Part shown: positions 15,052 through 58,842 of the stretch, piece after piece
Layout of the letters: every line of letters starts with the position of its first letter
Position numbering within the stretch: position 1 is the stretch's first letter
Sequence record: PX880101.1
Length of the DNA stretch: 64,000 nucleotides
Reading direction: 5' to 3' (one strand)
Origin: a phage
Position numbers and translations under genes: made by a program
Notes under the pieces: generated by a model
The model's input: the letters and a program-made list of their open reading frames with translations, nothing else
Told to the model about the DNA's origin: nothing
Databases searched by the model: none

Positions 15052-15083
15052 TAATCCCAGTTAAGCTAAAAGGAGGCTTGAAG

Positions 15084-15203
15084 ATGAGCACTACACGCCA
15101 GCACACAAAGGTAACTATTATCGTTTGCATCATTGGTTATATCCTGGCGCAAATGTTGATGGGTAGCGCCAACGGTGTCGCAAAATTTTTCTTAAACTTT
15201 TAA
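15084..15203 (+). CDS. hypothetical small membrane peptide (39 aa)
   Basis: AAAAGGAGG SD; hydrophobic core. Confidence 0.35.
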   Translation: MSTTRQHTKVTIIVCIIGYILAQMLMGSANGVAKFFLNF

Positions 15204-18900: not shown

Positions 18901-19020
18901 GATGACAACCAAGGATAAGCCATGCGCTGATAAGGTGCGCCGTGTTATGGTATGGCTTGAGATTATCGCCCTTGAAATATTGTTAGGCGTAGGGATGTAC
19001 TTTATCGCTGTAAGTAACTA
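18901..19020 (+). CDS. hypothetical small membrane peptide
   Basis: ATG after GGGAAGGGGGAGA; the region 18640-18920 has overlapping alternative frames. Confidence 0.3.
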
Positions 19021-19025
19021 AGAGC

Positions 19026-21474: not shown

Positions 21475-21665
21475 AAGCACATAGCTGCCTTACCCTGGGG
21501 CTGTGGTAGCGGCCCCATGAATAAGGTTACTAACAGAAGAGAATAAACACCGTGAAACAGAAATTAATCGATGCAGTGATCTTGGTTATTGCCCTGGGTA
21601 TTGGCCTGATTGCAACCATGTCTAATATGATCTTGTCTTCCAACGGTATCTGGTGAGGTTGGCAA

Positions 21666-22259: not shown

Positions 22260-22394
22260 ATGAGAAAGATAATTATTACCATGGGGATCGTGGCGGCAAT
22301 GTTGGCGATCTTTCCCTTTATGGTTAGGTATGTGCTGATTAATGTTGTCCTGGTAGTCAGCGATCTGGTGTTATATATTAACTCATTGTTTTAG
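22260..22394 (+). CDS. hypothetical small membrane peptide
   Basis: ATG overlaps the upstream stop; hydrophobic. Confidence 0.3.
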   Translation: MRKIIITMGIVAAMLAIFPFMVRYVLINVVLVVSDLVLYINSLF

Positions 22395-27142: not shown

Positions 27143-27355
27143 TCATAGTCTACCACCCCTGAACTCTTCGTGCTCAGGCATAATAGAGAACCAGATATCT
27201 ACGATGTCTTCCCACGTTAGGTCATCAGCCTCAGGATCTACCTGGAGCGAAGATGGAGAATCTTCAGAATCGAAGTTTTCCTCTTTCACTGGCTCAGCCA
27301 AGGGACATATAGTCACTCCTTTGGATGTCTCTTCAGATGCATGTGTGTTTATCAT
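27143..27355 (-). CDS. hypothetical acidic protein
   Basis: ORF in the minus-strand array. Confidence 0.45.
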   Translation of the reverse strand: MINTHASEETSKGVTICPLAEPVKEENFDSEDSPSSLQVDPEADDLTWEDIVDIWFSIMPEHEEFRGGRL

Positions 27356-27715
27356 GTTCCACCCGTGAGTATTCCGGCAACAGCCGCTATGGACGTAATG
27401 ATCATCAGGATCACCACTAAAACTTCGGACAATGTTCTCATTGTGTACCTCATATTCTCCAAACTATGTGTGGATACTATCACGAGAGTGGCAATGTGTC
27501 AACAGAAACGCCGCGAGGGTTTGGTTAAAATCCGAGCGTATGGTGATTTGGGTCAAAACGGACGTGCGTTCTCGCTACGCTCGAAATATGGAGTTGTTTG
27601 TAGGAAGCTCTTAAACGCTCTGTAATGAGATTATCTGTCCAAGGTATGCAATCGTGCACCAGATAAAGAAAAGGACGCCACAGAGCGTCCTAGGTGTCTT
27701 AAATTTGATATTTTG

Positions 27716-28015
27716 CTATACCCATGAGGGCTTATCAAGGTTGGAGTAGCTGAAAGGTGTCAAAAGGTGACTGTCAAAATCCCTCAAACTATCCAAATCT
27801 TTTTCCTCGTCCTGACACCATCTGTGCCTACATTTATTGTTGTAGTGCATGGAATGCATGGCGTTCTGCAACTTAACAGGCACAAGTGATTCAGGAGTAG
27901 ATAGTATTGTTGGGTATGCCAGAACCACCTCAAACAGTGGAAACACATCGAAACTAAAGTCTACCTCTGCAGAGGTTGATGGCATATAGGAGTATTTAGC
28001 CGCCTTTGTAGACAT
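27716..28015 (-). CDS. hypothetical protein
   Basis: ATG after GAGGTGG overlapping the upstream stop. Confidence 0.45.
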   Translation of the reverse strand: MSTKAAKYSYMPSTSAEVDFSFDVFPLFEVVLAYPTILSTPESLVPVKLQNAMHSMHYNNKCRHRWCQDEEKDLDSLRDFDSHLLTPFSYSNLDKPSWV

Positions 28016-28023
28016 AATCCACC

Positions 28024-28356
28024 TCACACAGGTTTGATAATACCTTTACCGAATAACTCTTCGTATCTAATCTTGTCCGGATCCCACTCCTGGATAATTT
28101 CGAAGACAATATCCAACCCAGGAACAATCACTTCTCCAGTGTCAAGCTTAGCAAGAACAAAACCGGAAGGTTGAATGGTTTCCCAGTTACGGCGATCAGA
28201 ATAAAATACTTCGAAAATATCACCAACCTCAATCCGTTTCTGTTGCTCAAGATGCTCAAGGTTCTCTTTCATACGGATGCAACGGATTTTTCGTACAGGC
28301 CATAGACCACCTGCATCACGTTCATTCAATTCTTTTACAGTGATCGGCATACCCAT
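28024..28356 (-). CDS. hypothetical protein
   Basis: ORF downstream of the terminator at 28378-28410. Confidence 0.5.
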   Translation of the reverse strand: MGMPITVKELNERDAGGLWPVRKIRCIRMKENLEHLEQQKRIEVGDIFEVFYSDRRNWETIQPSGFVLAKLDTGEVIVPGLDIVFEIIQEWDPDKIRYEELFGKGIIKPV

Positions 28357-28377
28357 CTCAAATCTCCTTCATAGATA

Positions 28378-28410
28378 GTAAAAAGAGGGGCCTAAGCCCC
28401 CCTCTTTGTC
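28378..28410 (-). terminator. Rho-independent terminator (minus strand)
   Basis: Minus-strand AGAGGGGGGC-TTAG-GCCCCTCT followed by TTTTTAC. Confidence 0.55.
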
Positions 28411-28411
28411 A

Positions 28412-28717
28412 TTATTCTACAGAGCGTTTGAACAGAATGTCTGCCTCAGACATGTGCTCAACCTCTTCTTCGATTTTAGCTCGACGTTTTTCAGCCTCAT
28501 ATCGAATATCGAACTCGGTAGCCACCAAAGATTTGATGAATTTAGGAGAATACAGATGATCCTGCTTCTCAACAAGAATGATATCCTTGATGGCATCTTT
28601 CAGATCTTTAATCTGAAGCTGGAGTTCCACCAGTTCTTCGATTGTTTTGCGAAGGCGATCACGTTCTGCAGTGTCAGAAGGAAGAGAGGTGAACAGTTCA
28701 ACTTTAGATTTAGCCAT
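28412..28717 (-). CDS. hypothetical coiled-coil protein
   Basis: ORF; charged heptad-like sequence. Confidence 0.5.
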   Translation of the reverse strand: MAKSKVELFTSLPSDTAERDRLRKTIEELVELQLQIKDLKDAIKDIILVEKQDHLYSPKFIKSLVATEFDIRYEAEKRRAKIEEEVEHMSEADILFKRSVE

Positions 28718-28745
28718 AGTAAGAGTCTCCTTATGTTGTTTTAAA

Positions 28746-28997
28746 TTAACGTTCTACAAAAATACCGTTCAGTTCAATAACCAGGAATTTCTGGTCTTCA
28801 CTATCGTCTCGTGCCAGCACCTCACAGACGTATCGGTCATCCCCATCATCATCGCAGTCAAATACAAGACTGAGGACTTTATCATGATAAACCTTCGCCA
28901 CTACCGCCTCATAAGTATTGCCGATTGTGAATCCAAGATAATCTCCGATGCATTTGACAACAACATGGTCGCCAGCATTCAAGTCAATCTTCGTCAT
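28746..28997 (-). CDS. hypothetical protein
   Basis: ATG after AAGGAG (internal start of listed ORF 28746-29063). Confidence 0.5.
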   Translation of the reverse strand: MTKIDLNAGDHVVVKCIGDYLGFTIGNTYEAVVAKVYHDKVLSLVFDCDDDGDDRYVCEVLARDDSEDQKFLVIELNGIFVER

Positions 28998-29152
28998 TAC
29001 TGCGCTCCTTGGGTAATAATACTGTATGTAAAACTTTAACCAGAGATGTGAATAACGCCCCAAAACACACCGATAGCGCTAAAACAGACAAGGCCATCAT
29101 TAAAGCTTCAGTAAAATCAGTCACTCCTCACCTCTTGTTAGTCACTATACTG

Positions 29153-29416
29153 TCATTTATCCTTGCCGTCAAGAACTTTTTTAAATCTTTCAGGAATATC
29201 ACCTGTTCTTAGATAGTTCATGACCTCACAAGGTTCCCACTTGAATTTCTTACAAAGCAGGGCGGCTGAGATTGTTTCATTGCGAAAAGAAAGGATATTA
29301 ATATCCCATTCTGAGAACCCCAACTTCCGAAGGGTAGCTACAGAAATCCTCACCGCAACCCAGCAGCAAAAACATGCAACAAACGCCACTGCTATAACCC
29401 ACATCAGGATGTTCAT
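29153..29416 (-). CDS. hypothetical membrane protein
   Basis: Hydrophobic N-terminus. Confidence 0.45.
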   Translation of the reverse strand: MNILMWVIAVAFVACFCCWVAVRISVATLRKLGFSEWDINILSFRNETISAALLCKKFKWEPCEVMNYLRTGDIPERFKKVLDGKDK

Positions 29417-29505
29417 ACAAGCACCTCACTGAAATACAAGACACAGTGTTAAGGTTACTGACCAGCAAATAATTAACAGTACCGTTGCAACCTTGGCAAG
29501 ATTTA

Positions 29506-29793
29506 TCATAGTGCCTCTAAGATTTCATATCCTTCGGGTCGGAATACAAGCCACTCCGTGGCTCCGTTTGGTCGATACGCTTTATACAGAACAACCTGGT
29601 CTCGGCACATGCACATGGCTACATAGTTTTCATCCACACCTGCAGCCTGCATTGCATCTTCTTCTCCGGCAACTGCTTTGCTTACAACTTCCTTGGTAGG
29701 CAGGTGTGCGATCAGCTCGTCACCATCATTAATTCCAAAATGGCTGAGTTCGCCGTTGGTATCTTTAATCTTAATCTTAACCAGATCTTTCAT
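29506..29793 (-). CDS. hypothetical small acidic protein (tandem family member)
   Basis: MKDLVKIKIK N-terminus, acidic C-terminus; ATGA coupling. Confidence 0.5.
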   Translation of the reverse strand: MKDLVKIKIKDTNGELSHFGINDGDELIAHLPTKEVVSKAVAGEEDAMQAAGVDENYVAMCMCRDQVVLYKAYRPNGATEWLVFRPEGYEILEAL

Positions 29794-30122
29794 TAGTCTT
29801 CCCCCAGGTTCAAAGGTCCTAAGATTTCATATGCCAGATTAGAAGTTACAAGAGGGTCTTCTGCGTCTTTAGTATTATACCACCCGTGAATAACCAGAGT
29901 CCCACTTTGTTTCATGTCCAACTGGAACTCTTCTGCCGTTTCCTCATCCAGCTCCAAGATTTCCATAAGGTATTTGATGTTAGGGAGGTATGCAGCTGTT
30001 ACAGTCCCCTCTACCAGACCTTCAGGCCAACCTACATCTGGATGACAAGTAGGAACCAGGTTGGTCAGCTTAATGGTGTACGCTTTTTCTGCACGAGCCT
30101 TCAGTAACGGGTCAATCTTCAT
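29793..30122 (-). CDS. hypothetical small acidic protein (tandem family member)
   Basis: ORF; coupled starts and stops. Confidence 0.5.
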   Translation of the reverse strand: MKIDPLLKARAEKAYTIKLTNLVPTCHPDVGWPEGLVEGTVTAAYLPNIKYLMEILELDEETAEEFQLDMKQSGTLVIHGWYNTKDAEDPLVTSNLAYEILGPLNLGED

Positions 30123-30472
30123 TATTCGTCCTCCTCTTCGGTACCTGCTTCCAGTAATAAGTTAAGAATATCTTCTGCACAAGGCTCATAGAACTCTTGG
30201 CCTTCATTATCGATGATTTTATAGTCATCTCCACGAATAATCAGGGGATCACTCTCAAAATTATCGAGACCTTTAACAACGACAACACGATCGATTGCCA
30301 TCATTGTAAGAACTTTATCGACATCTTCCTCTGCTACACCATACTGCAGCAGAATGTCTTTGGTAGGAGGAACAGCATCCACCACAACACCGTTACCAAA
30401 ACCTTCCGGGAGTTTAGCTAAAATATCTTCCGGAACCACATTCACATCAAAACCAGTAATTTCTACTTTCAT
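30122..30472 (-). CDS. hypothetical small acidic protein (N-terminus MKVEITG)
   Basis: ORF; acidic C-terminus EEEDE. Confidence 0.5.
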   Translation of the reverse strand: MKVEITGFDVNVVPEDILAKLPEGFGNGVVVDAVPPTKDILLQYGVAEEDVDKVLTMMAIDRVVVVKGLDNFESDPLIIRGDDYKIIDNEGQEFYEPCAEDILNLLLEAGTEEEDE

Positions 30473-30733
30473 TTACAGCACCTCTTCGTCAACTACTTCA
30501 TAAAAATGGCTTGGGATTGCAATAGCGTTCTCACCTTCACCCAAGAACACTGTCCCACTAACGATTAACATTAGAAGAACGTCTGCGATACCTTCCTCGG
30601 GGACGTTGCCAAAACCTTTGATCAGCTCGTAGGTTGGAATATTTACCTCTAAGATGTCACCATCTTTAGAACGGAAATCAACACCGTCCTGAATCTCTGC
30701 CGTTTCAAGGTTTTTCAATTTAATCTTCATCAA
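30473..30733 (-). CDS. hypothetical small acidic protein (tandem family member)
   Basis: MMKIKLKNL N-terminus; C-terminus VVDEEVL. Confidence 0.5.
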   Translation of the reverse strand: MMKIKLKNLETAEIQDGVDFRSKDGDILEVNIPTYELIKGFGNVPEEGIADVLLMLIVSGTVFLGEGENAIAIPSHFYEVVDEEVL

Positions 30734-30809
30734 TCGGTCTCCTGTCTTGTTAAGATGAAGGTATTATTTCACACAGGGTTGGCGTTGTCAACACCTGTGT
30801 GCAAGAAAA

Positions 30810-31205
30810 TTACTGAAACAGTGCAGATAAATTACCTTCTGGTGGGAACTTATCTGCCAAAAACGGTGTTAGCACAGTAGCCTTCTGAAGATCTGGGGTC
30901 CACTCGTTGTTCAGAACATCCCAGTAGTACGCAATATTGCTGTGTGGGTGCCGCATTACGAACTTTTTCCCTTCGTAGTCATCTGAAACCTCTACAGAAG
31001 AAATAACAACAGAATCTTCAAGGGTTTCTTCATAGAAAGATCCACCTTCAAATTTCCAACGAGATGCAAGAGCCCCTGCCTTGAACGCTGCAGATAACGG
31101 ACTGTCGGCAAGAACATACATTTCTTGCACTCTGTCGCTGCGATCTTTGCTTCTTACGTTGTATACAGTATCTGAGCTATACTCAACACGGTATAGGCTT
31201 ACCAT
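30810..31205 (-). CDS. hypothetical protein, paralogue of 33017-33415
   Basis: Shared segments HP.S...YW....W.P...A..L. Confidence 0.55.
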   Translation of the reverse strand: MVSLYRVEYSSDTVYNVRSKDRSDRVQEMYVLADSPLSAAFKAGALASRWKFEGGSFYEETLEDSVVISSVEVSDDYEGKKFVMRHPHSNIAYYWDVLNNEWTPDLQKATVLTPFLADKFPPEGNLSALFQ

Positions 31206-31537
31206 TACCGCACCTCCTCAATAACTTCCACATCTGAACCTACCACAAATGCAAAAGGACAGGTTTCATGAAAGATATCCGGATCGCCGCCAAGCTTGCT
31301 AACAATTTCTCCACCACTAATAAACACAAGCTCACCGATATTCATCAGATTGCTGAAATAGTACCCATAATGATTAAAGAATGCAGCAGGGTCAGGTAGA
31401 CTAGTAGCCTCAAGCACTACATCGGTTGAGGTTACTTTCTTATCATAACCTCTCGCCTTTTGAGATGCAAGATCTGCAGAATCCTCAGGAGACCGGAGAT
31501 GCACAGGAATTGTTTCACCAATAAAGCGTACTTTCAT
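31205..31537 (-). CDS. hypothetical small acidic protein (tandem family member)
   Basis: MKVRFIG N-terminus; C-terminus GSDVEVIEEVR. Confidence 0.5.
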   Translation of the reverse strand: MKVRFIGETIPVHLRSPEDSADLASQKARGYDKKVTSTDVVLEATSLPDPAAFFNHYGYYFSNLMNIGELVFISGGEIVSKLGGDPDIFHETCPFAFVVGSDVEVIEEVR

Positions 31538-31541
31538 ATTA

Positions 31542-31805
31542 TCACCCAACAACCATAGCTTCAAAAGGAGTCATGAACGAATAAACGGCATCATCATCTG
31601 CTTCAGGGAATGCTCCCAAAGACTTCATGTCTGAGCCCTTGACAAATACAAGGTTTTGATCAAAAGCTTCTTGGGGGTCAATCCGATACATATTTCGTAG
31701 AATATCGCTTACCTCCTCATCAAGAGGTGAGTATGCTGTGCACGTTTTTCCGATCAAGCTTTGAGAATCAGGGTAGCCACCTGAAGTTTTAAAATAAACA
31801 ATCAT
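31542..31805 (-). CDS. hypothetical small acidic protein (tandem family member)
   Basis: ORF in tandem array. Confidence 0.5.
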   Translation of the reverse strand: MIVYFKTSGGYPDSQSLIGKTCTAYSPLDEEVSDILRNMYRIDPQEAFDQNLVFVKGSDMKSLGAFPEADDDAVYSFMTPFEAMVVG

Positions 31806-31896
31806 ATAGTATCACCTCTGGTAAGAGATTGGGATTCCTTTCCCATAAATAATTACAAATCTTCCTTAGCGAGGAAGTATGCTAATCCAAGCAGGA

Positions 31897-32166
31897 TTAT
31901 TCCTCTACAATCTCATACACATCAGGAGTTACAATCAACTCTTCTCCATTACCAGGTGCAACAAACACCACCAAACCCTCAGGTGTGTGCTTTTTAGCCA
32001 TCTCGATAACATCTTCTCGCAGAGCTGGCTCCATCAGATCAAAACCTTCACCCAGGGCATCACGAACCACCTTCATATAGTCCACTGGTTGTGCTTCAAC
32101 AATCATGCCTTCAACCAGACCACAATTTTTGTCTGCCAGCTCAGTTTTGAATAATTTAATTTTCAT
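31897..32166 (-). CDS. hypothetical small acidic protein (tandem family member)
   Basis: MKIKLFK N-terminus; C-terminus VYEIVEE. Confidence 0.5.
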   Translation of the reverse strand: MKIKLFKTELADKNCGLVEGMIVEAQPVDYMKVVRDALGEGFDLMEPALREDVIEMAKKHTPEGLVVFVAPGNGEELIVTPDVYEIVEE

Positions 32167-32303
32167 TTAGAGGTCTCCTCAATTATTTGATATTAATAGC
32201 CGTAACCTAACACATTAACTACAACTGCGATTGCAAACATAATTTCAAAGCATGCAATCTCTACATTTGGGACTAATTTCTTAATCACACCCATTGTAGC
32301 ACC

Positions 32304-32624
32304 TCATTCTCCAAAGTCAATCTTTACTTTGCCTTTCCCCTTACCTTTCTTTCCACCGCATTTAGCCAGCTGACGTGCTGCAACATCTACCATACGGTCA
32401 GTTGCCTCGTAAGCATCACTGCCTTTAGCCTTGGCAATAACTTCTTTTCCAGAATTGTCAAAAATGAACGCCATAACTTCCTGGTGATCATTTTCAACTT
32501 TTACACTCACACGTGCATAGTTAACAGAGGGATGTAAACGCTCCAGCTTGGACATTTTGCGGGAAATAAAAGATACCATACCTTCTGTGATTTCTACATT
32601 GTTGCCAGTGATTTCAATTTGCAT
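32304..32624 (-). CDS. hpf: Ribosome hibernation promoting factor / RaiA-family protein (HPF homologue)
   Basis: MQIEITGNNVEITEGM...KLE...VKVE...AKAKGSDAYEATDRMVDVAARQLAK aligns along its length with E. coli HPF (recalled as MQLNITGNNVEITEAL...KLEQ...LKVEK...ASAEGQDMYAAIDGLIDKLARQLTK). Confidence 0.75.
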   Translation of the reverse strand: MQIEITGNNVEITEGMVSFISRKMSKLERLHPSVNYARVSVKVENDHQEVMAFIFDNSGKEVIAKAKGSDAYEATDRMVDVAARQLAKCGGKKGKGKGKVKIDFGE

Positions 32625-32673
32625 AACGTGTTCCTTTTAAGGAAGAGGGAATAACTATCTCTCTTTGAAAACA

Positions 32674-32702
32674 ATGATACTAAATCTGAAGCGTTGTGTC
32701 AA
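32674..32702 (-). promoter_or_regulatory. sigma70-like promoter TTGACA-N17-TATCAT driving hpf (minus strand)
   Basis: Minus-strand hexamers with 17-nt spacer, about 50 nt upstream of the hpf ATG. Confidence 0.55.
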
Positions 32703-32708
32703 CAGTTT

Positions 32709-32999
32709 TTACAGCTTGTTGTCGATAGTTTTTAAAATATCCACAGCAAGATCTGCCATTTTTCGAACATACTCTGCAAACTCAACAGGATCCTTGATCA
32801 AAGAATTCACAGGGTCGTACCCTAGAGCGTTTAAAATGGCTGCAGCATCTACAACCTTCTCATCATTTGCGAAGATCTCTCCGTCAAACTTGTAGGTCCA
32901 TTTTGAGTCAACCTTAGCAGAGCAGGGTTTGTCCATGCTTGTTACACCATCGTCTTTAAACTCTCCTGCGTTATCAATATTTAGAATTAAATCCATCAT
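32709..32999 (-). CDS. hypothetical protein
   Basis: ORF. Confidence 0.5.
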   Translation of the reverse strand: MMDLILNIDNAGEFKDDGVTSMDKPCSAKVDSKWTYKFDGEIFANDEKVVDAAAILNALGYDPVNSLIKDPVEFAEYVRKMADLAVDILKTIDNKL

Positions 33000-33016
33000 G
33001 GTGACACCTCACTGTT

Positions 33017-33415
33017 TCAGTTTAGCTTTTCTTCAACAACCCCATAACTTGGGGCAGAGTCAAGAGCTTTCTGGTTTAAAAGTGGCGTAGCAGAATCTGC
33101 AAACGGTGTCCAAGTTTTTGTTCTGGCATTCCAGTAATGCTTCACTCTGGAATCTGGATGCACTATAACAAAAACTTTTTCACTTGTCAACACATTAATT
33201 TCTTCTACACCCTTGCTGATAATTTCTCCGTCATAGCCCCCAGTCTGGTATCCTTCGTACCAGGTTCTTGCATAGGCATAGCCAGCCTGCCAGCATGCAG
33301 CCTCCTCCGAGGTGGAGACTACGTAGAAGTCTTTCTCAAATTCCGGAATACGCCCTTGCTTTACGCTCCAAGCTCCGCGAATTTTCATTGTTACTTTGAA
33401 AAGCTTGTTCTTCAT
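33017..33415 (-). CDS. hypothetical protein, paralogue of 30810-31205
   Basis: Shared segments with 30810-31205. Confidence 0.55.
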   Translation of the reverse strand: MKNKLFKVTMKIRGAWSVKQGRIPEFEKDFYVVSTSEEAACWQAGYAYARTWYEGYQTGGYDGEIISKGVEEINVLTSEKVFVIVHPDSRVKHYWNARTKTWTPFADSATPLLNQKALDSAPSYGVVEEKLN

Positions 33416-33416
33416 A

Positions 33417-33671
33417 CTACCGCTCTACAATCTCTACGTCTGTTCCTACACCGAAGGCATAGTAATGTTCTTCCCCAAAGTAATACTTGGGGACACCCGC
33501 TTTGATCAGATCTAACCCGCGAATAAATACCACACCGTGTGATACAGTGGAATGCTTCTGACGCACAGGATCGTTGTCAGGCAACCATTCAAAGTACACC
33601 GCAGGTACAACCTTTCCCTTCAGGAAGGATTGTCCCAAGTAGACGTTAGAATCAAGAATTTTAACCTTCAT
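33417..33671 (-). CDS. hypothetical small protein (MKVKIL family)
   Basis: MKVKILDSNVYLGQ...GTDVEIVER. Confidence 0.5.
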   Translation of the reverse strand: MKVKILDSNVYLGQSFLKGKVVPAVYFEWLPDNDPVRQKHSTVSHGVVFIRGLDLIKAGVPKYYFGEEHYYAFGVGTDVEIVER

Positions 33672-33888
33672 TCTCGTCCTCCACTATCTCTACATCCTCA
33701 CCAAGGGCAAAGTTGTAGGTCCACTGGCTGTCAAAGCAGTCCTGAGATGCACCAGCGGCAATAAGATCTGCACCTTTTATTTTTAAAAGGTCAGGATAAT
33801 CTTCGTTAGGGATAGCGGTAAACACTTTCCCCACTAAGGGCTCCTGACCAATATAGAAGCTTGAATCTAAAACTTTAACTTTCATCAA
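33661..33888 (-). CDS. hypothetical small protein (MKVKVL family)
   Basis: MMKVKVLDSSFYIGQ...GEDVEIVED. Confidence 0.5.
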   Translation of the reverse strand: MMKVKVLDSSFYIGQEPLVGKVFTAIPNEDYPDLLKIKGADLIAAGASQDCFDSQWTYNFALGEDVEIVEDENEG

Positions 33889-34172
33889 CGGTCTCCCTCA
33901 GGCGGTTGTGGGACGTAAACACTGTTACGAATATCGTCAGCAGTGTAGTAATAAGTGGTTCCAACCCTATCTCGGGCTGCAATGTACTCTGCTATACCAA
34001 CAAGTGCCATTGATTTGGTGGCGTATCTTCCCCACTCGTTAGCTCCCCAGTAGAATTTAGACCAGTAGGGAATAAGACCGAACAAATATACCTTTTGACG
34101 AACTTCCCAGTAAGTGCCTTTTCCGACAAGTTTAAACTCTACTTCACTACTGTTAATCTTTTTCATTATCAA
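33885..34172 (-). CDS. hypothetical protein
   Basis: ATGA coupling. Confidence 0.45.
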   Translation of the reverse strand: MIMKKINSSEVEFKLVGKGTYWEVRQKVYLFGLIPYWSKFYWGANEWGRYATKSMALVGIAEYIAARDRVGTTYYYTADDIRNSVYVPQPPEGDR

Positions 34173-34465
34173 TCTCCCTCTACCGTGGTCGGATTGTCAG
34201 TAAGAAATTGAGCATTGGCTGGAGGCACGCCTGACATTTTCCACACAACCATAAGTTTATAACCAGGCACTCTATTAAGTGCAGATCGAGTAGAGTTTGT
34301 GCACGTATACTTTCGCTTTCCAAACCCGTTCTCCATCATAATCCAGTACCCAGTATCTTTGTCACCAGGTATCGGTAGACCACCTTCATCAACCCACTGA
34401 ATTGACCACGGCACGATGGCTACAGCTTTATATTTAAACTTTTTAAACCACTCAAAAAGTTTCAT
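34169..34465 (-). CDS. hypothetical protein
   Basis: ORF. Confidence 0.45.
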   Translation of the reverse strand: MKLFEWFKKFKYKAVAIVPWSIQWVDEGGLPIPGDKDTGYWIMMENGFGKRKYTCTNSTRSALNRVPGYKLMVVWKMSGVPPANAQFLTDNPTTVEGD

Positions 34466-34560
34466 AATTCAGCCCCGCATAGACATAATCACTATAAACA
34501 GGCAAACAATGAATCCGAATGCCACGCCACCCATAAACGTTAATATTGATGCAATCATAG

Positions 34561-34746
34561 TCAATCAGCCTCGCCTGGCAACTCTTCTACCTTAACATGC
34601 CGAAAAGTGTTACCGTAATGGTTGATCCATGACATCAGCTCACTTTCTTGCTCTTCCTCTGGGATGAACTCTCGAATACTGACAAGTTTTAAGAAAACCC
34701 AATCACAATCTGCACCCATTCTACCAGACAGACAATAGTGCTTCAT
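34561..34746 (-). CDS. hypothetical protein (start uncertain)
   Basis: Internal ATG after GGAGGG. Confidence 0.35.
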   Translation of the reverse strand: MKHYCLSGRMGADCDWVFLKLVSIREFIPEEEQESELMSWINHYGNTFRHVKVEELPGEAD

Positions 34747-34765
34747 AAAAACCCTCCCGCCCGGT

Positions 34766-34960
34766 TTAGAATATTGCTTCTTCCATTGCGCCTGAGAGCA
34801 ACAAAGAGGCAATCTGGCTAACATTCATCTCAGACTCTACTTCCTCCCCTTTGAAAGGTTCGCGGCAGAATAGGACTGTTTCAGGACTTTTACTTCGAAC
34901 AATATAATACAAATCATTCAATGTGTTGTAGTAATAAGTGTTAAAACGTAAGTTTTTCAT
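34766..34960 (-). CDS. hypothetical protein
   Basis: ORF. Confidence 0.4.
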   Translation of the reverse strand: MKNLRFNTYYYNTLNDLYYIVRSKSPETVLFCREPFKGEEVESEMNVSQIASLLLSGAMEEAIF

Positions 34961-35244
34961 TTTCTAGTCCCCTTCTTAGATTTTTGTGCAGAAACGCTTT
35001 CTGCAATACGAGACAGGCGTTCTTCTGAAGCTTTACCTATCCCAGGTTTCTTGAGCGGGTTATCTTTATGACCGCAATCCAATTGGATATTGGATACCTC
35101 CCCAATCTTGTAAGTCAATTCTAGCAAAAGGTTGTCGTCCTTGTCAAATGTTTTTACGATAAATTTTTTATCGTTCTCCTGAACTTCATATCTGGTACCT
35201 GCAGTATACAGCATGGTGCCATCAGCATAGGATATCCAGATCAT
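34957..35244 (-). CDS. hypothetical protein
   Basis: ATGA coupling. Confidence 0.45.
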   Translation of the reverse strand: MIWISYADGTMLYTAGTRYEVQENDKKFIVKTFDKDDNLLLELTYKIGEVSNIQLDCGHKDNPLKKPGIGKASEERLSRIAESVSAQKSKKGTRK

Positions 35245-35588
35245 TGAGCCTCCTTTTGCTGCAACAGCATTAACTCTTTGTTAGAGATCTTTACTGCTGT
35301 TTTTATTGTTCCATCTTCACGAAACCACGACCAGAACTCTACAGTGTCACCACTATCAAGTAAAGCATACCCATGGTAAAAATCTTTGTCCTTAGACAGT
35401 TTCTCATCGATATCTGCATCGACACATTCGTGATCCATAGCATTTTGCCTGAACGCATCGGTTATGCCAATGCACGCCTTGCTCTCAAGACTGGTATATC
35501 CGATATCTTTTAATTCAGTTTCCCAAGTCCAGTACCCTATAAAAGCTAAAACAGCTACCCACAGTAATAACGTTTTAATCTTTGGCAT
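35241..35588 (-). CDS. hypothetical protein with N-terminal signal anchor
   Basis: MPKIKTLLLWVAVLAFIGYW hydrophobic N-terminus. Confidence 0.5.
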   Translation of the reverse strand: MPKIKTLLLWVAVLAFIGYWTWETELKDIGYTSLESKACIGITDAFRQNAMDHECVDADIDEKLSKDKDFYHGYALLDSGDTVEFWSWFREDGTIKTAVKISNKELMLLQQKEAQ

Positions 35589-35650
35589 TCTCTCTACCTC
35601 TTTCTTAGTTTATTTCACTATGGCACATCCTTTGTGCCATATCTCAACTA

Positions 35651-36121
35651 CTACTTAAATAGTAGTTCAAAATAGTGCAAAATTAACAGAAGTTGAACTA
35701 CACCTAGTGCAACGGCGAGTATGTTAATCTTAGAATCGAAAAACTTCTTAACTTTTACTCTAAAAGGTTCCTTAATGTCCTTTACGATCCTATCTATAGA
35801 TGACCTCATATCCCTGATTACCATCCTGAACATTAAAGACGGATGCTCCCCCATCTCTGTAACGGAATCGAAAACATACTCTCTTCGGTCATAAGGGCCG
35901 CCAGCTCTGCGTATTAACCTCTCCACAGAGACCTCGAACGTCACACCTGTAACGTAATCATCTATAACAAGTCGTGACGGGTCTTTACCTTTACTATCAA
36001 GAGGTATCAAAGTTATCTTTCCAGATTTTGTTAAAATTTCCCCTTTTTCAAGCAAGGTGTACCAATGCTCTCTGCCAAGACTGTTGAGGCACGTTTTTAC
36101 ATATTTAACAAACATCGTCAC
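35651..36121 (-). CDS. hypothetical protein with C-terminal TM helix
   Basis: Hydrophobic C-terminus. Confidence 0.5.
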   Translation of the reverse strand: MTMFVKYVKTCLNSLGREHWYTLLEKGEILTKSGKITLIPLDSKGKDPSRLVIDDYVTGVTFEVSVERLIRRAGGPYDRREYVFDSVTEMGEHPSLMFRMVIRDMRSSIDRIVKDIKEPFRVKVKKFFDSKINILAVALGVVQLLLILHYFELLFK

Positions 36122-36303
36122 CCCTCATCGCACGTCTGATATAACCACTCTATAAAATCTTGATACCATTCGCCCTCTGAGCGCTCCGTAGGCCAATAAT
36201 CTTCACCCTCTCGTGCATTAAAATCTGAGTATTCAACTTTCCACTCCTTTACCAGCTCGTGGAGAAGGTTTTCAGCCTGCTCTAAAGATTTATTTTTTAC
36301 CAT
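36118..36303 (-). CDS. hypothetical protein
   Basis: ATG after AAGGAGA. Confidence 0.4.
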   Translation of the reverse strand: MVKNKSLEQAENLLHELVKEWKVEYSDFNAREGEDYWPTERSEGEWYQDFIEWLYQTCDEG

Positions 36304-36522
36304 TGCTGTCTCCTTTTTCAAGATAGTTATACATCAGAACTGCACCACCTAAGATGGCTACCAGTAACAATATCCCAGATAGCATCTCAATAAACATGGC
36401 TTGAAACACTGGAAGGTCTCCCTAAATTAACGCACCATTTTAAATACATGCTCTTTTCCCATAAAGGTGCCTGGCTAAGATCTGCGTAGAACGCAATCTC
36501 TTTAAGAACAGTATAGATAGTT

Positions 36523-36750
36523 TTAGGTGCGGTCTCCATCCCTACTCTCCTTCCTGATATTCTTGTAGTAATCAACTAGGCACATTATTACGATGAAGAT
36601 AACAACAGGCCAAAAAGGTGCAGCAGTGATGATGGTGATAAAATCATCAAACTTCACCCTTCGTCTGGACACGATGCATACACCTGTCAAGAATACCGCT
36701 GTTATAACGGACATTACCAGGTAACCTATTAGCACAACATTTATACTCAT
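36523..36750 (-). CDS. hypothetical membrane protein (two TM helices)
   Basis: Hydrophobic. Confidence 0.45.
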   Translation of the reverse strand: MSINVVLIGYLVMSVITAVFLTGVCIVSRRRVKFDDFITIITAAPFWPVVIFIVIMCLVDYYKNIRKESRDGDRT

Positions 36751-58101: not shown

Positions 58102-58308
58102 TCATTCAAAGAAATGGGTGCGAGGACAAGATCCAGCCTCGCCTTGTTTCACAAGCTCGTAGAGCTCACCTTGACTTGTCTCATAAAGGCAAATACGTTT
58201 ACCATTGTCCCGATATACATCGACAAGATACGCTGTTTCACCTGCAAACACGACACCACAGGCCAGACATGCTGCCATGAACAAAATTGCCAACAGAAAA
58301 TCTTTCAT
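58102..58308 (-). CDS. hypothetical small secreted protein or lipoprotein next to the lysozyme gene
   Basis: MKDFLLAILFMAACLAC signal or lipobox-like N-terminus. Confidence 0.45.
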   Translation of the reverse strand: MKDFLLAILFMAACLACGVVFAGETAYLVDVYRDNGKRICLYETSQGELYELVKQGEAGSCPRTHFFE

Positions 58309-58371: not shown

Positions 58372-58842
58372 TCAATCAAGGACAACACCGCCTGCCTTTT
58401 TAAACACCTCGATCAACTTCTCAATCTTCTGTTCATGCTGACCATATCCAGCACCAGGTAACGAAGCCCAGCGGGAACGGCATTTATGGATAGCCTCGTG
58501 GATACGCCCTTCGTCAATGTCGGCGAGAGCCTTGCACTCACGGATCAGTTGCAACGCAATCTTGTCCTGACTGGCAGGGCCAAAATCTGGCAATCCTAAC
58601 TGTTCCATGTAGTGTTTAGCAAACTTCTCCAAAACCTGGTAACGCCCAGCAGCGGAGGAGGTAAGTTTAGCATTTAGCTTAACGTACACACCTGGATGCT
58701 TGCTGTAATCGCTAAACAGCTTGCCACCAACTATGACATCATAGCCCCGATCCTTGGTGGGTTGTCTACCATTATCTGTGCCTTCTGAATATGCGATCAT
58801 ATCCAAGAAAGCTTTTCGTTGAACATTTTTATCAAGTTTCAT
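58372..58842 (-). CDS. Endolysin, lambda R-like lytic transglycosylase
   Basis: NVQRKAFLDMIAYSEGTDNGRQ...GYDVIVGG...AGRYQ...WASLPGAGYGQHE closely parallels lambda R. Confidence 0.9.
   Translation of the reverse strand: MKLDKNVQRKAFLDMIAYSEGTDNGRQPTKDRGYDVIVGGKLFSDYSKHPGVYVKLNAKLTSSAAGRYQVLEKFAKHYMEQLGLPDFGPASQDKIALQLIRECKALADIDEGRIHEAIHKCRSRWASLPGAGYGQHEQKIEKLIEVFKKAGGVVLD

Follow-up and report, generated by a model that had tools for sequence, protein, structure and literature searches.

The 64,000-nt phage sequence of record PX880101.1, here called the window and analyzed as a whole, carries a series of very short, strongly hydrophobic open reading frames (ORFs) in the narrow gaps of a minus-strand gene cluster, which raises the question of whether these micro-ORFs are genes and what their products might do. 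A sequence-only reading had listed five of them, here named A to E, as small membrane proteins, and one more such ORF, F, lies within the same range and had not been listed. We found hydrophobic cores, Shine-Dalgarno (SD) sites, and tight or overlapping junctions at the micro-ORFs, and protein-level purifying selection on E, B, A, and F. With moderate confidence, we propose that the micro-ORFs are genes for single-pass inner-membrane microproteins of 27–46 aa that modulate partner proteins and are not holins.

The five listed ORFs lie on the minus strand at the places given for them, and their translations match the peptides that had been quoted. Each of the six peptides has one predicted transmembrane (TM) helix. 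The best 17-residue Kyte-Doolittle window (KD17) scores 2.83 in A, 2.35 in B, 2.50 in C, 2.71 in D, 2.57 in E, and 2.66 in F, and the 19-residue values (KD19) of all six are 2.27–2.95, with the stretch of at least 17–19 hydrophobic residues expected of a single-pass TM protein. The decoy set comprised all 20–59-aa ORFs of the window that lie off-frame or antisense within long genes (n = 600); among these, 17/600 reach a KD17 of at least 2.0 and 2/600 a KD17 of at least 2.4 (Fisher p ~1e-9), indicating that the hydrophobic micro-ORFs are not a compositional accident. The SD-like motifs were likewise borne out, with SD-antiSD duplex energies of -5.8 to -8.9 kcal/mol that are within the range of real genes (median -8.15 kcal/mol for 32 genes of the block) and far from the decoys (median -2.2 kcal/mol for 656 decoy start codons). 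The micro-ORFs fill their gaps nearly exactly, through ATGA or 14-nt overlaps or spacers of 2–26 nt, and the start/stop overlaps that had been noted are present in A (its stop overlaps the start of the next gene as ATGA), B (14 nt into the following gene), and E (both neighbors). Four of the six (A, C, D, and F) lack a cytoplasmic tail. Two starts had to be moved: the ATG codons proposed at 29100 for B and at 36397 for E have no SD sequence (duplex energies of -0.2 and +0.6), and the real starts are the GTG codons listed in Table 1.

Table 1. Micro-ORFs of the window and the features discussed with them (aa, amino acids; TM, transmembrane; TMD, transmembrane domain)
Feature	Coordinates	Strand	Description
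Micro-ORF A	27352..27441	-	29 aa, MRTLSEVLVVILMIITSIAAVAGILTGGT; one TM helix, no tail
Promoter-like site	27474..27502	-	TTGACA-17-TAGTAT, with TG; ~33 nt upstream of A
Micro-ORF B (rV5 gp156)	28984..29124	-	46 aa; start GTG at 29124
Promoter-like site	29144..29172	-	TTGACG-17-TATAGT; 20 nt upstream of the GTG of B
gp155	29153..29416	-	87 aa; N-terminal TM helix
Micro-ORF F	29426..29509	-	27 aa, MINLAKVATVLLIICWSVTLTLCLVFQ; well supported
Micro-ORF C (rV5 gp145)	32193..32294	-	33 aa; basic N-terminus
Sigma70 promoter-like site	32293..32320	-	TTGACT-16-TGcTACAAT; 10/12 match, extended -10
Micro-ORF D	34469..34558	-	29 aa, MIASILTFMGGVAFGFIVCLFIVIMSMRG; presence/absence accessory gene
Direct repeat, downstream copy	34469..34478	-	GCGGGGCTGA here, GCGAGGCTGA in most relatives
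Direct repeat, upstream copy	34561..34570	-	GCGAGGCTGA, 10 nt; end of preceding gene, stop codon, SD
Micro-ORF E (rV5 gp131)	36290..36409	-	39 aa; start GTG at 36409
gp129	36523..36750	-	75–78 aa, two TMDs; two genes upstream of E

The window is assigned, from its sequence matches, to an rV5-like Escherichia coli myophage of the genus Vequintavirus: the 10 kb around the micro-ORFs matches 122 phage records at 89–99% nucleotide identity, all of them rV5-like E. coli myophages. Synonymous and nonsynonymous events were counted per codon column in each gene of the block, with the two off-frames as controls, across a crown group of 15 related loci (82–97% identity) from GenBank, IMG/VR, and metagenomes. 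Established neighbor genes gave omega-like ratios of 0.02–0.39 and an overwhelming synonymous excess, which never appeared in the off-frames. E, with one TM helix, a conserved Glu (IEMLSG), and the charged tail YNYLEKGDSNGKK of mixed charge, showed 22 synonymous versus 9 nonsynonymous events (omega ~0.11, p = 8e-9; 17 versus 3 in the TM core), its variable columns are distributed 4/4/19 over the three codon positions, and it is intact at 14/14 loci. B, which consists of an acidic N-terminus, one TM helix, and the net acidic charged tail KERSNDED, gave an omega of ~0.25 (p = 1e-4), with 12 synonymous versus 2 nonsynonymous events in the TM core, and is also intact at 14/14 loci. Both begin with GTG here; B has ATG in most relatives and the SD sequence AAGAGGTGAGGA (-7.1), while E has ATG in FV3, NHEP1, and the deep lineages described below and an SD energy of -8.9. 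The crown-group test gave p = 0.056 for A, whose SD is GAGG (-6.9 kcal/mol). When presence was scored by tblastn in 118 Vequintavirus records, B and E were each found in 118/118 and A in 114/118.

Protein searches with E and ORF146 further identified a set of uncultured sister lineages, L019–L025 (the deep lineages), whose PhoH/ClpP region is only ~70% identical to Vequintavirus; A, C, D, and F, as short queries, were traced in sister lineages through their neighbor genes. Homologues of A, B, and E in the sister lineages are ~50–60% identical to those of the window and remain syntenic and length-conserved, though the neighboring proteins (those flanking E in L019, compared with their window counterparts) are only 38–79% identical. 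E is 37–40 aa long there, with 55–61% identity and an ATG at the equivalent of 36409; its 14-nt overlap with gp132 is kept in L019–L021 and shorter in L022/L023 (4 nt by called coordinates). The motif IEMLSG recurs in the deep lineages, and ILGGA and Y..LEK in L019/L024. B is 45–46 aa in all relatives and 45 aa in the deep lineages, and L022/L024 hold A homologues of 30 aa. Comparison of L022 with L024, which is a replicate independent of the crown group, revealed 12 synonymous versus 6 nonsynonymous events in A (ratio of nonsynonymous to synonymous change, pN/pS, 0.17, p = 2e-4) and pN/pS values of 0.45 (p = 0.006) in B and 0.40 (p = 0.012) in E. In the crown group, a synonymous excess in an intact ORF was found for E, B, and F, and the sister clade showed it for A, B, and E. 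Deep synteny and selection in two separate clades identify A, B, and E as old, selected protein genes. The conservation within the helices is sequence-specific and goes beyond mere hydrophobicity, with IEMLSG and ILGGA in E and ALSVLALSV.FGA.FT in B, which suggests specific helix packing. All lineages keep the module ORF128-gp129-gp130-E-gp132-gp133.

Upstream of A, between g27716 and A, an apparently non-coding element occupies 27513–27691 (minus strand) and includes a terminator-like hairpin at 27672–27691. The hairpin and a block, TTCGAGCG[T/A]AGCGAGA, are invariant even in the ~70%-identical sister lineages, the sequence between them is scrambled, and the element has no Rfam match. A 44-aa ORF annotated at 27525–27659 in some records is disfavored by this conservation pattern.

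The start of F and the stop of the upstream gene share an ATGA, the stop of F coincides in part with the SD of gp155, whose start is 9 nt downstream, and F is predicted to be translationally coupled to both neighbors. In the crown group its omega is ~0.44 (p = 3e-3), and it is intact at 15/15 loci and in L017 and L018 despite heavy divergence. Its substitutions shun polar residues and stops (1/18 observed versus 5.2 expected, p = 0.017). This test of conservative substitution is informative for F and the pooled set only, being underpowered for A, C, and D, and the pooled A+C+D value (P = 0.58) is inflated by the misaligned C-terminus of A. F was found in 118/118 records, is annotated in none of nine record tables, and has no PHROG match. 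A separate F is missing from the deep lineages, where the gp155 homologue has an N-terminal helix (LLLVIICWSVVAF) that resembles F (VLLIICWSVTLTL): the mean-of-best score is 38.2 versus 29.3 +/- 2.2 for composition-matched shuffles (P ~0.0007), and the best score is 48, with nine other TM peptides scoring 39 or less. The spacing from Cys-Trp to LGFS shows that it is the gp155 helix of the crown group to which the deep-lineage helix is truly orthologous, and F is therefore an extra copy. By this sequence comparison, gp155 is the probable parent of the TM segment of F, and a duplication of the gp155 5' TM-coding segment is a post-hoc lead for how F may have arisen.

D was found in ~91/118 records and is intact in every carrier; it is missing in JEP1, CYGL, and all outgroups (L004/L017 and L022–L025). 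It has an SD energy of -7.2 and spacers of 2 and 3 nt, and it contains a GxxxG motif (GVAFG). Its variable columns are distributed 5/0/5 over the codon positions, and 7/7 amino-acid changes are hydrophobic-to-hydrophobic. The evidence that D is coding is suggestive only. The ~96-nt D segment sits exactly between the two 10-nt repeat copies, the downstream of which holds the last codons and the stop of D and the SD of the next gene, and genomes without D have a single repeat copy exactly at the D junction. The absence of D from the outgroups favors a recent gain, with later loss by inter-repeat recombination in individual lineages as the alternative. No paralogous DNA or peptide that might represent the donor of D was found within the window.

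C occupies the gap between HPF and ORF146. Its TM segment is marginal and includes one Glu; its SD (GAGGTG) has an energy of -6.9, and its spacers are 9 and 26 nt. A full-length tblastn match, which does not cover ORF integrity, was obtained in 118/118 records. Codons 2–4 are freely variable, while the last 23 codons are nearly invariant, synonymous sites included; with 5 variable columns (mean of the block 21.2 +/- 8.8), no 70 nt of the block vary less than this stretch, and two other windows vary as little. A stop-to-stop change (TAA to TGA) was seen, and in SKEL, where the ATG has become ATA, an in-frame ATG is present at codon 3. The deep lineages lack C; their HPF/ORF146 gap is 81 nt long, with a near-consensus promoter that reads TTTACA-17-TATAAT in L022. 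Predicted folding of the C region is not stronger than that of shuffled sequences (z = -0.36), the region shows no covariation or compensatory pairs, and searches of the whole region in Rfam (E <= 1) and for tRNAs returned no known RNA family and no tRNA. The invariant part of C also includes, at 32210–32250 (minus strand), a 7-bp inverted repeat without mismatches, ATTGCA-(17 nt)-TGCAAT, which closely follows the promoter-like site and might serve as an operator. The coding status of C is ambiguous: the sequence may specify a real peptide, act as a leader or operator, or do both, and it may be non-functional as a protein. Support for the description as small membrane proteins is good for A, B, and E, and also for F, moderate for D, and weak for C. 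Conservation in relatives extends to the deep lineages for A, B, and E, and C and D are absent from these lineages.

The adjoining HPF gene (HPF/RaiA, Ribosomal_S30AE; 32304–32624, minus strand) encodes a short ribosome hibernation factor that occurs, among phage records, in the genus Vequintavirus and its sister lineages only. Scans of IMG/VR and metagenomes anchored on HPF returned only close relatives and L004.

The five listed micro-ORFs had been taken for genes missed by standard annotation, which is wrong for all of them; they are already known. The 2006 rV5 record holds B (ORF156), C (ORF145), and E (ORF131), and Table S3 of the rV5 paper lists gp131 (39 aa), gp145 (33 aa), and gp156 (46 aa) as "membrane protein, 1 TMD", with one TMD predicted in each by TMHMM and Phobius (Kropinski et al. 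2013, PMC3606486). E, C, and B of the window are 92–100% identical to these proteins. Full-length PHROG matches were obtained for A (phrog_34195, 4e-21, from its Met onward), B (phrog_16755, 4e-36), C (phrog_15151, 4e-26), and E (phrog_15251, 1e-30), all four families being categorized as "unknown function", and D has a weak, partial match (0.004). The three rV5 proteins and four PHROGs are accordingly the same genes as E, C, B, and A, with only strain-level substitutions between them; D and F are in neither Table S3 nor the PHROG families. A–E are all annotated in the BASEL genome JeffSchatz and in MiataMamis (pharokka-style), and NHEP1 (pharokka-style) has B, C, D, and a longer E, and not A. 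Beyond the record, the analysis adds evidence that A, B, E, and F are protein-coding, the corrected starts of B and E, the apparently unannotated F, and the dating of the gains (C and F intermediate, D recent); the points that are mildly new are limited to this age series and to a possible origin of F by duplication.

A membrane-modulator role is the most plausible one for the microproteins, judged from their sequences. The leftward small-gene block carries several sigma70-type promoter-like sites (the total of the promoter-like scan, 32, is only mildly above shuffles, 20.9 +/- 5.1), and the micro-ORFs would be translated from polycistronic mRNA, either directed by their SD sites or coupled to a neighbor. 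Each product would amount to little beyond one TM helix, to which B and E would add a short charged cytoplasmic tail. The microproteins would insert in the E. coli inner membrane, where helix-helix contacts would modulate another membrane protein. Candidate partners of E are its co-conserved neighbors gp129 (two TMDs) and gp133 (one TMD), and that of F would be gp155, owing to the likeness of their TM helices; the remaining microproteins may bind host inner-membrane proteins in the manner of AcrZ, MgrB, or MgtS. Because the products are almost pure helices with residue-specific conservation, we infer that intramembrane partner binding is the best-supported mechanism.

Several observations weigh against this proposal. 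In C, the crown group shows 5.5 synonymous versus 14.5 nonsynonymous events and hence no synonymous excess (p = 0.26), Mangalyan carries a premature stop that breaks the ORF, and the -10 of the promoter-like site overlaps the C ATG and is conserved in all crown-group loci, so that transcripts from this site would begin inside C. The omega of ~0.36 for D is borderline and not significant alone (p = 0.06), and D is missing from 23% of genomes. In NHEP1, A has been replaced, and the similarity of F to gp155 was spotted post hoc. A–F are confined to Vequintavirus and its uncultured sisters and look like dispensable accessory genes; tblastn of the six peptides against 50,697 phage records (expect values up to 1–10) gave no credible homologue beyond Vequintavirus, and family searches showed no homology of A–F to characterized proteins. 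Pfam, NCBIfam, PHROGs, and PADLOC gave no match of A–F to a holin, type I toxin, small-membrane-protein, or defense family. In the literature, we found no transcriptome, Ribo-seq, proteomic, expression, or functional study of the micro-ORF genes.

The micro-ORFs could instead encode membrane-damaging or host-shut-off peptides like the type I toxins TisB, Hok, Ibs, and ShoB, or superinfection-exclusion factors, whose helices would oligomerize and depolarize or seal the inner membrane, thereby altering the host or blocking the entry of rival phage DNA. In size, in having a single helix, and in their short charged tails, they are like type I toxins and small exclusion proteins, and GxxxG-type motifs are present in A (GILTG) as well as D. 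This alternative is nevertheless unlikely, since NCBIfam and Pfam gave no toxin match at E <= 1 beyond meaningless sub-threshold ones, six depolarizing peptides made before replication would harm the phage, and residue-specific helix conservation suits partner recognition over generic pores. Weak antisense promoter-like matches within B, C, D, and E, which would suit toxin loci, are 9/12 and lie in the AT-rich antisense of TM codons, in a scan only mildly above shuffles. These plus-strand matches (28991–29020, 32215–32243, 34461–34489, and 36401–36428) are four of the twelve weak ones in 27.0–37.5 kb and are probably an effect of the AT-rich antisense of hydrophobic codons.

For C and D in particular, a further alternative is that no functional protein is made: C would be the transcribed leader, promoter, or operator region of ORF146, open by chance, D a recent junction insertion whose translation merely couples its neighbors, and the hydrophobicity a by-product of T-rich sequence. 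The lack of a synonymous excess in C, its near-invariant last 23 codons, the broken reading frame in Mangalyan and the lost start in SKEL, the conserved -10 on its ATG, the promoter-bearing 81-nt gap that is all the deep lineages have, and the inverted repeat all point this way, as do the patchy distribution of D, its flanking repeats, and its borderline test. We regard this alternative as rather unlikely, because the SD sites of C and D are strong, conserved, and correctly spaced, hydrophobicity of this degree is very rare in decoys, C keeps a stop through TAA to TGA and, where its first ATG has gone, has another one in frame, and the changes in D are all conservative, with none at the second codon position and the ORF intact in all carriers. 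C also has no RNA structure signal, and the explanation is inapplicable to A, B, E, and F.

Holins usually comprise about 60–220 aa, with two or three TMDs (or one and a large periplasmic domain) and a highly charged, basic C-terminal cytoplasmic tail, and their genes are usually, not universally, linked to endolysin or spanin genes. In the window, the endolysin is encoded at 58372–58842, no holin candidate adjoins it, and the micro-ORFs (27.3–36.4 kb) lie 22–31 kb away. Directly downstream of the endolysin, a 68-aa ORF (58102–58308, minus strand) whose N-terminus (MKDFLLAILFMAACLACG...) is lipoprotein-like may encode a lysis component of the spanin kind. The name "putative holin" was given to gp129 purely for its two TMDs (PMC3606486); gp129 belongs to phrog_10061, a family of unknown function, and has no holin family match. 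ORF128, labeled "putative glycosidase" in BASEL, was considered as support for a local lysis module and rejected, with no Pfam match and a PHROG of unknown function. The holin- or antiholin-like role in the sequence-only reading, by which E above all, or other microproteins, would act as a holin, antiholin, or holin accessory with gp129 in the timing of permeabilization, finds some footing in that the rV5 paper could nominate only gp129 as the holin of rV5-like phages, that E lies two genes downstream of gp129 in every lineage, the deepest included, and that E is predicted to be N-out/C-in with a charged tail, as in many small lysis regulators; it is quite improbable, however, for peptides of 27–46 aa with one helix that fall below the sizes of characterized holins, that carry a net acidic (B) or mixed (E) tail where they carry one, that match no holin or antiholin family, and of which E alone is near gp129, while no lysis gene adjoins A, B, C, D, or F, the endolysin and its lipoprotein-like neighbor are distant, the holin role of gp129 is itself a guess, and adjacent sigma70-type promoters at several micro-ORFs suggest early or middle rather than late expression.

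Returning to the micro-ORFs as genes for partner-modulating microproteins, their distribution among lineages points to different ages: A, B, and E are old, F and C intermediate, and D a recent, still polymorphic insertion. We tentatively suggest that the gaps between genes act as a cradle of one-helix micro-genes, with an age series running from the old A, B, and E through F, derived from gp155, and C, formed in a promoter leader, to the newborn D. As parts of this same tentative suggestion, F would have arisen by tandem duplication or splitting of the gp155 5' TM segment and would now pair with or regulate gp155, and D would be a newborn 96-nt insertion, polymorphic and provided with its own SD/stop junction copy. 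If this holds, rV5-like phages would be a tractable system for the birth, fixation, and loss of TM microproteins. Genes called in the sister lineages include small ones that the window lacks at the corresponding positions, for example in L017 (7154–7273, 39 aa) and L022 (184–330, 48 aa), which is consistent with a turnover of small genes in the block.

The micro-ORFs are located in the distal part of a long leftward transcription unit (rV5 genes 82–163), a stretch of ~40 small genes annotated as function unknown, of which ~10 encode membrane proteins by our own tally. The sign of the GC skew reverses in the block, which fits minus-strand genes. In the plus-strand half of the window, further hydrophobic gap-filling ORFs of 34–44 aa are present at 15078–15203, 18902–19021, 21552–21656, and 22260–22394, several with strong SD sites. 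Table S3 of the rV5 paper lists four more 39–46-aa proteins with one TMD elsewhere in the genome (PMC3606486). The four plus-strand ORFs are probably of the class of these proteins, gp170, gp173, gp181, and gp193, so that micro-membrane proteins would be a genome-wide habit of rV5-like phages. Among the relatives, 18 GenBank records of the MG0656xx series named "Campylobacter phage" (host C. jejuni) are 95–97% identical to the rV5-like region, and contamination or mis-assignment would account for what seems a doubtful host label. Phage-therapy and biocontrol cocktails make use of vequintaviruses, which are also represented in the BASEL collection. With evidence from selection in two clades and from deep synteny that A, B, E, and F are protein-coding, these four are worth cloning, and the hunt for the holin, exclusion factors, and host-membrane modulators of these phages is narrowed once the real micro-ORFs are known.

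Among known systems, the small inner-membrane regulators of bacteria include AcrZ (49 aa), MgrB (47 aa), SgrT (43 aa), CydX (37 aa), MgtS (31 aa), and KdpF (29 aa). The micro-ORF products share with regulators of the AcrZ/MgrB/MgtS type their size, a single TM helix with little soluble part, residue conservation within the helix, and SD-driven short ORFs beside or overlapping larger genes; the likeness is architectural only, the micro-ORFs being phage-encoded and having no sequence relationship to them. Type I toxins (TisB, 29 aa; ShoB, 26 aa; IbsC, 19 aa; LdrD, 35 aa; Hok, 50 aa) are likewise hydrophobic single-helix peptides, of 19–50 aa, but the micro-ORFs have no family or Rfam match to them and lie in co-directional, coupled operons rather than in stand-alone toxin-antitoxin loci. 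Phage holins and antiholins (lambda S105/S107, the phage 21 pinholin S68, and T4 T/RI/RIII) are also small phage membrane proteins, whereas the microproteins are much smaller and single-helix, mostly have no basic C-terminal tail, and are not encoded beside the endolysin. Small-gene families of phage genomes have reportedly been surveyed by Fremin et al. in 2022. "The Cryptic Bacterial Microproteome" (PMC11188072) is a catalog-level survey of intergenic small ORFs of Enterobacteriaceae. The shared phenomenon is that many phage and bacterial small ORFs encode single TM helices and are under-annotated; in contrast to such surveys, specific loci are followed here through age strata within one phage lineage.

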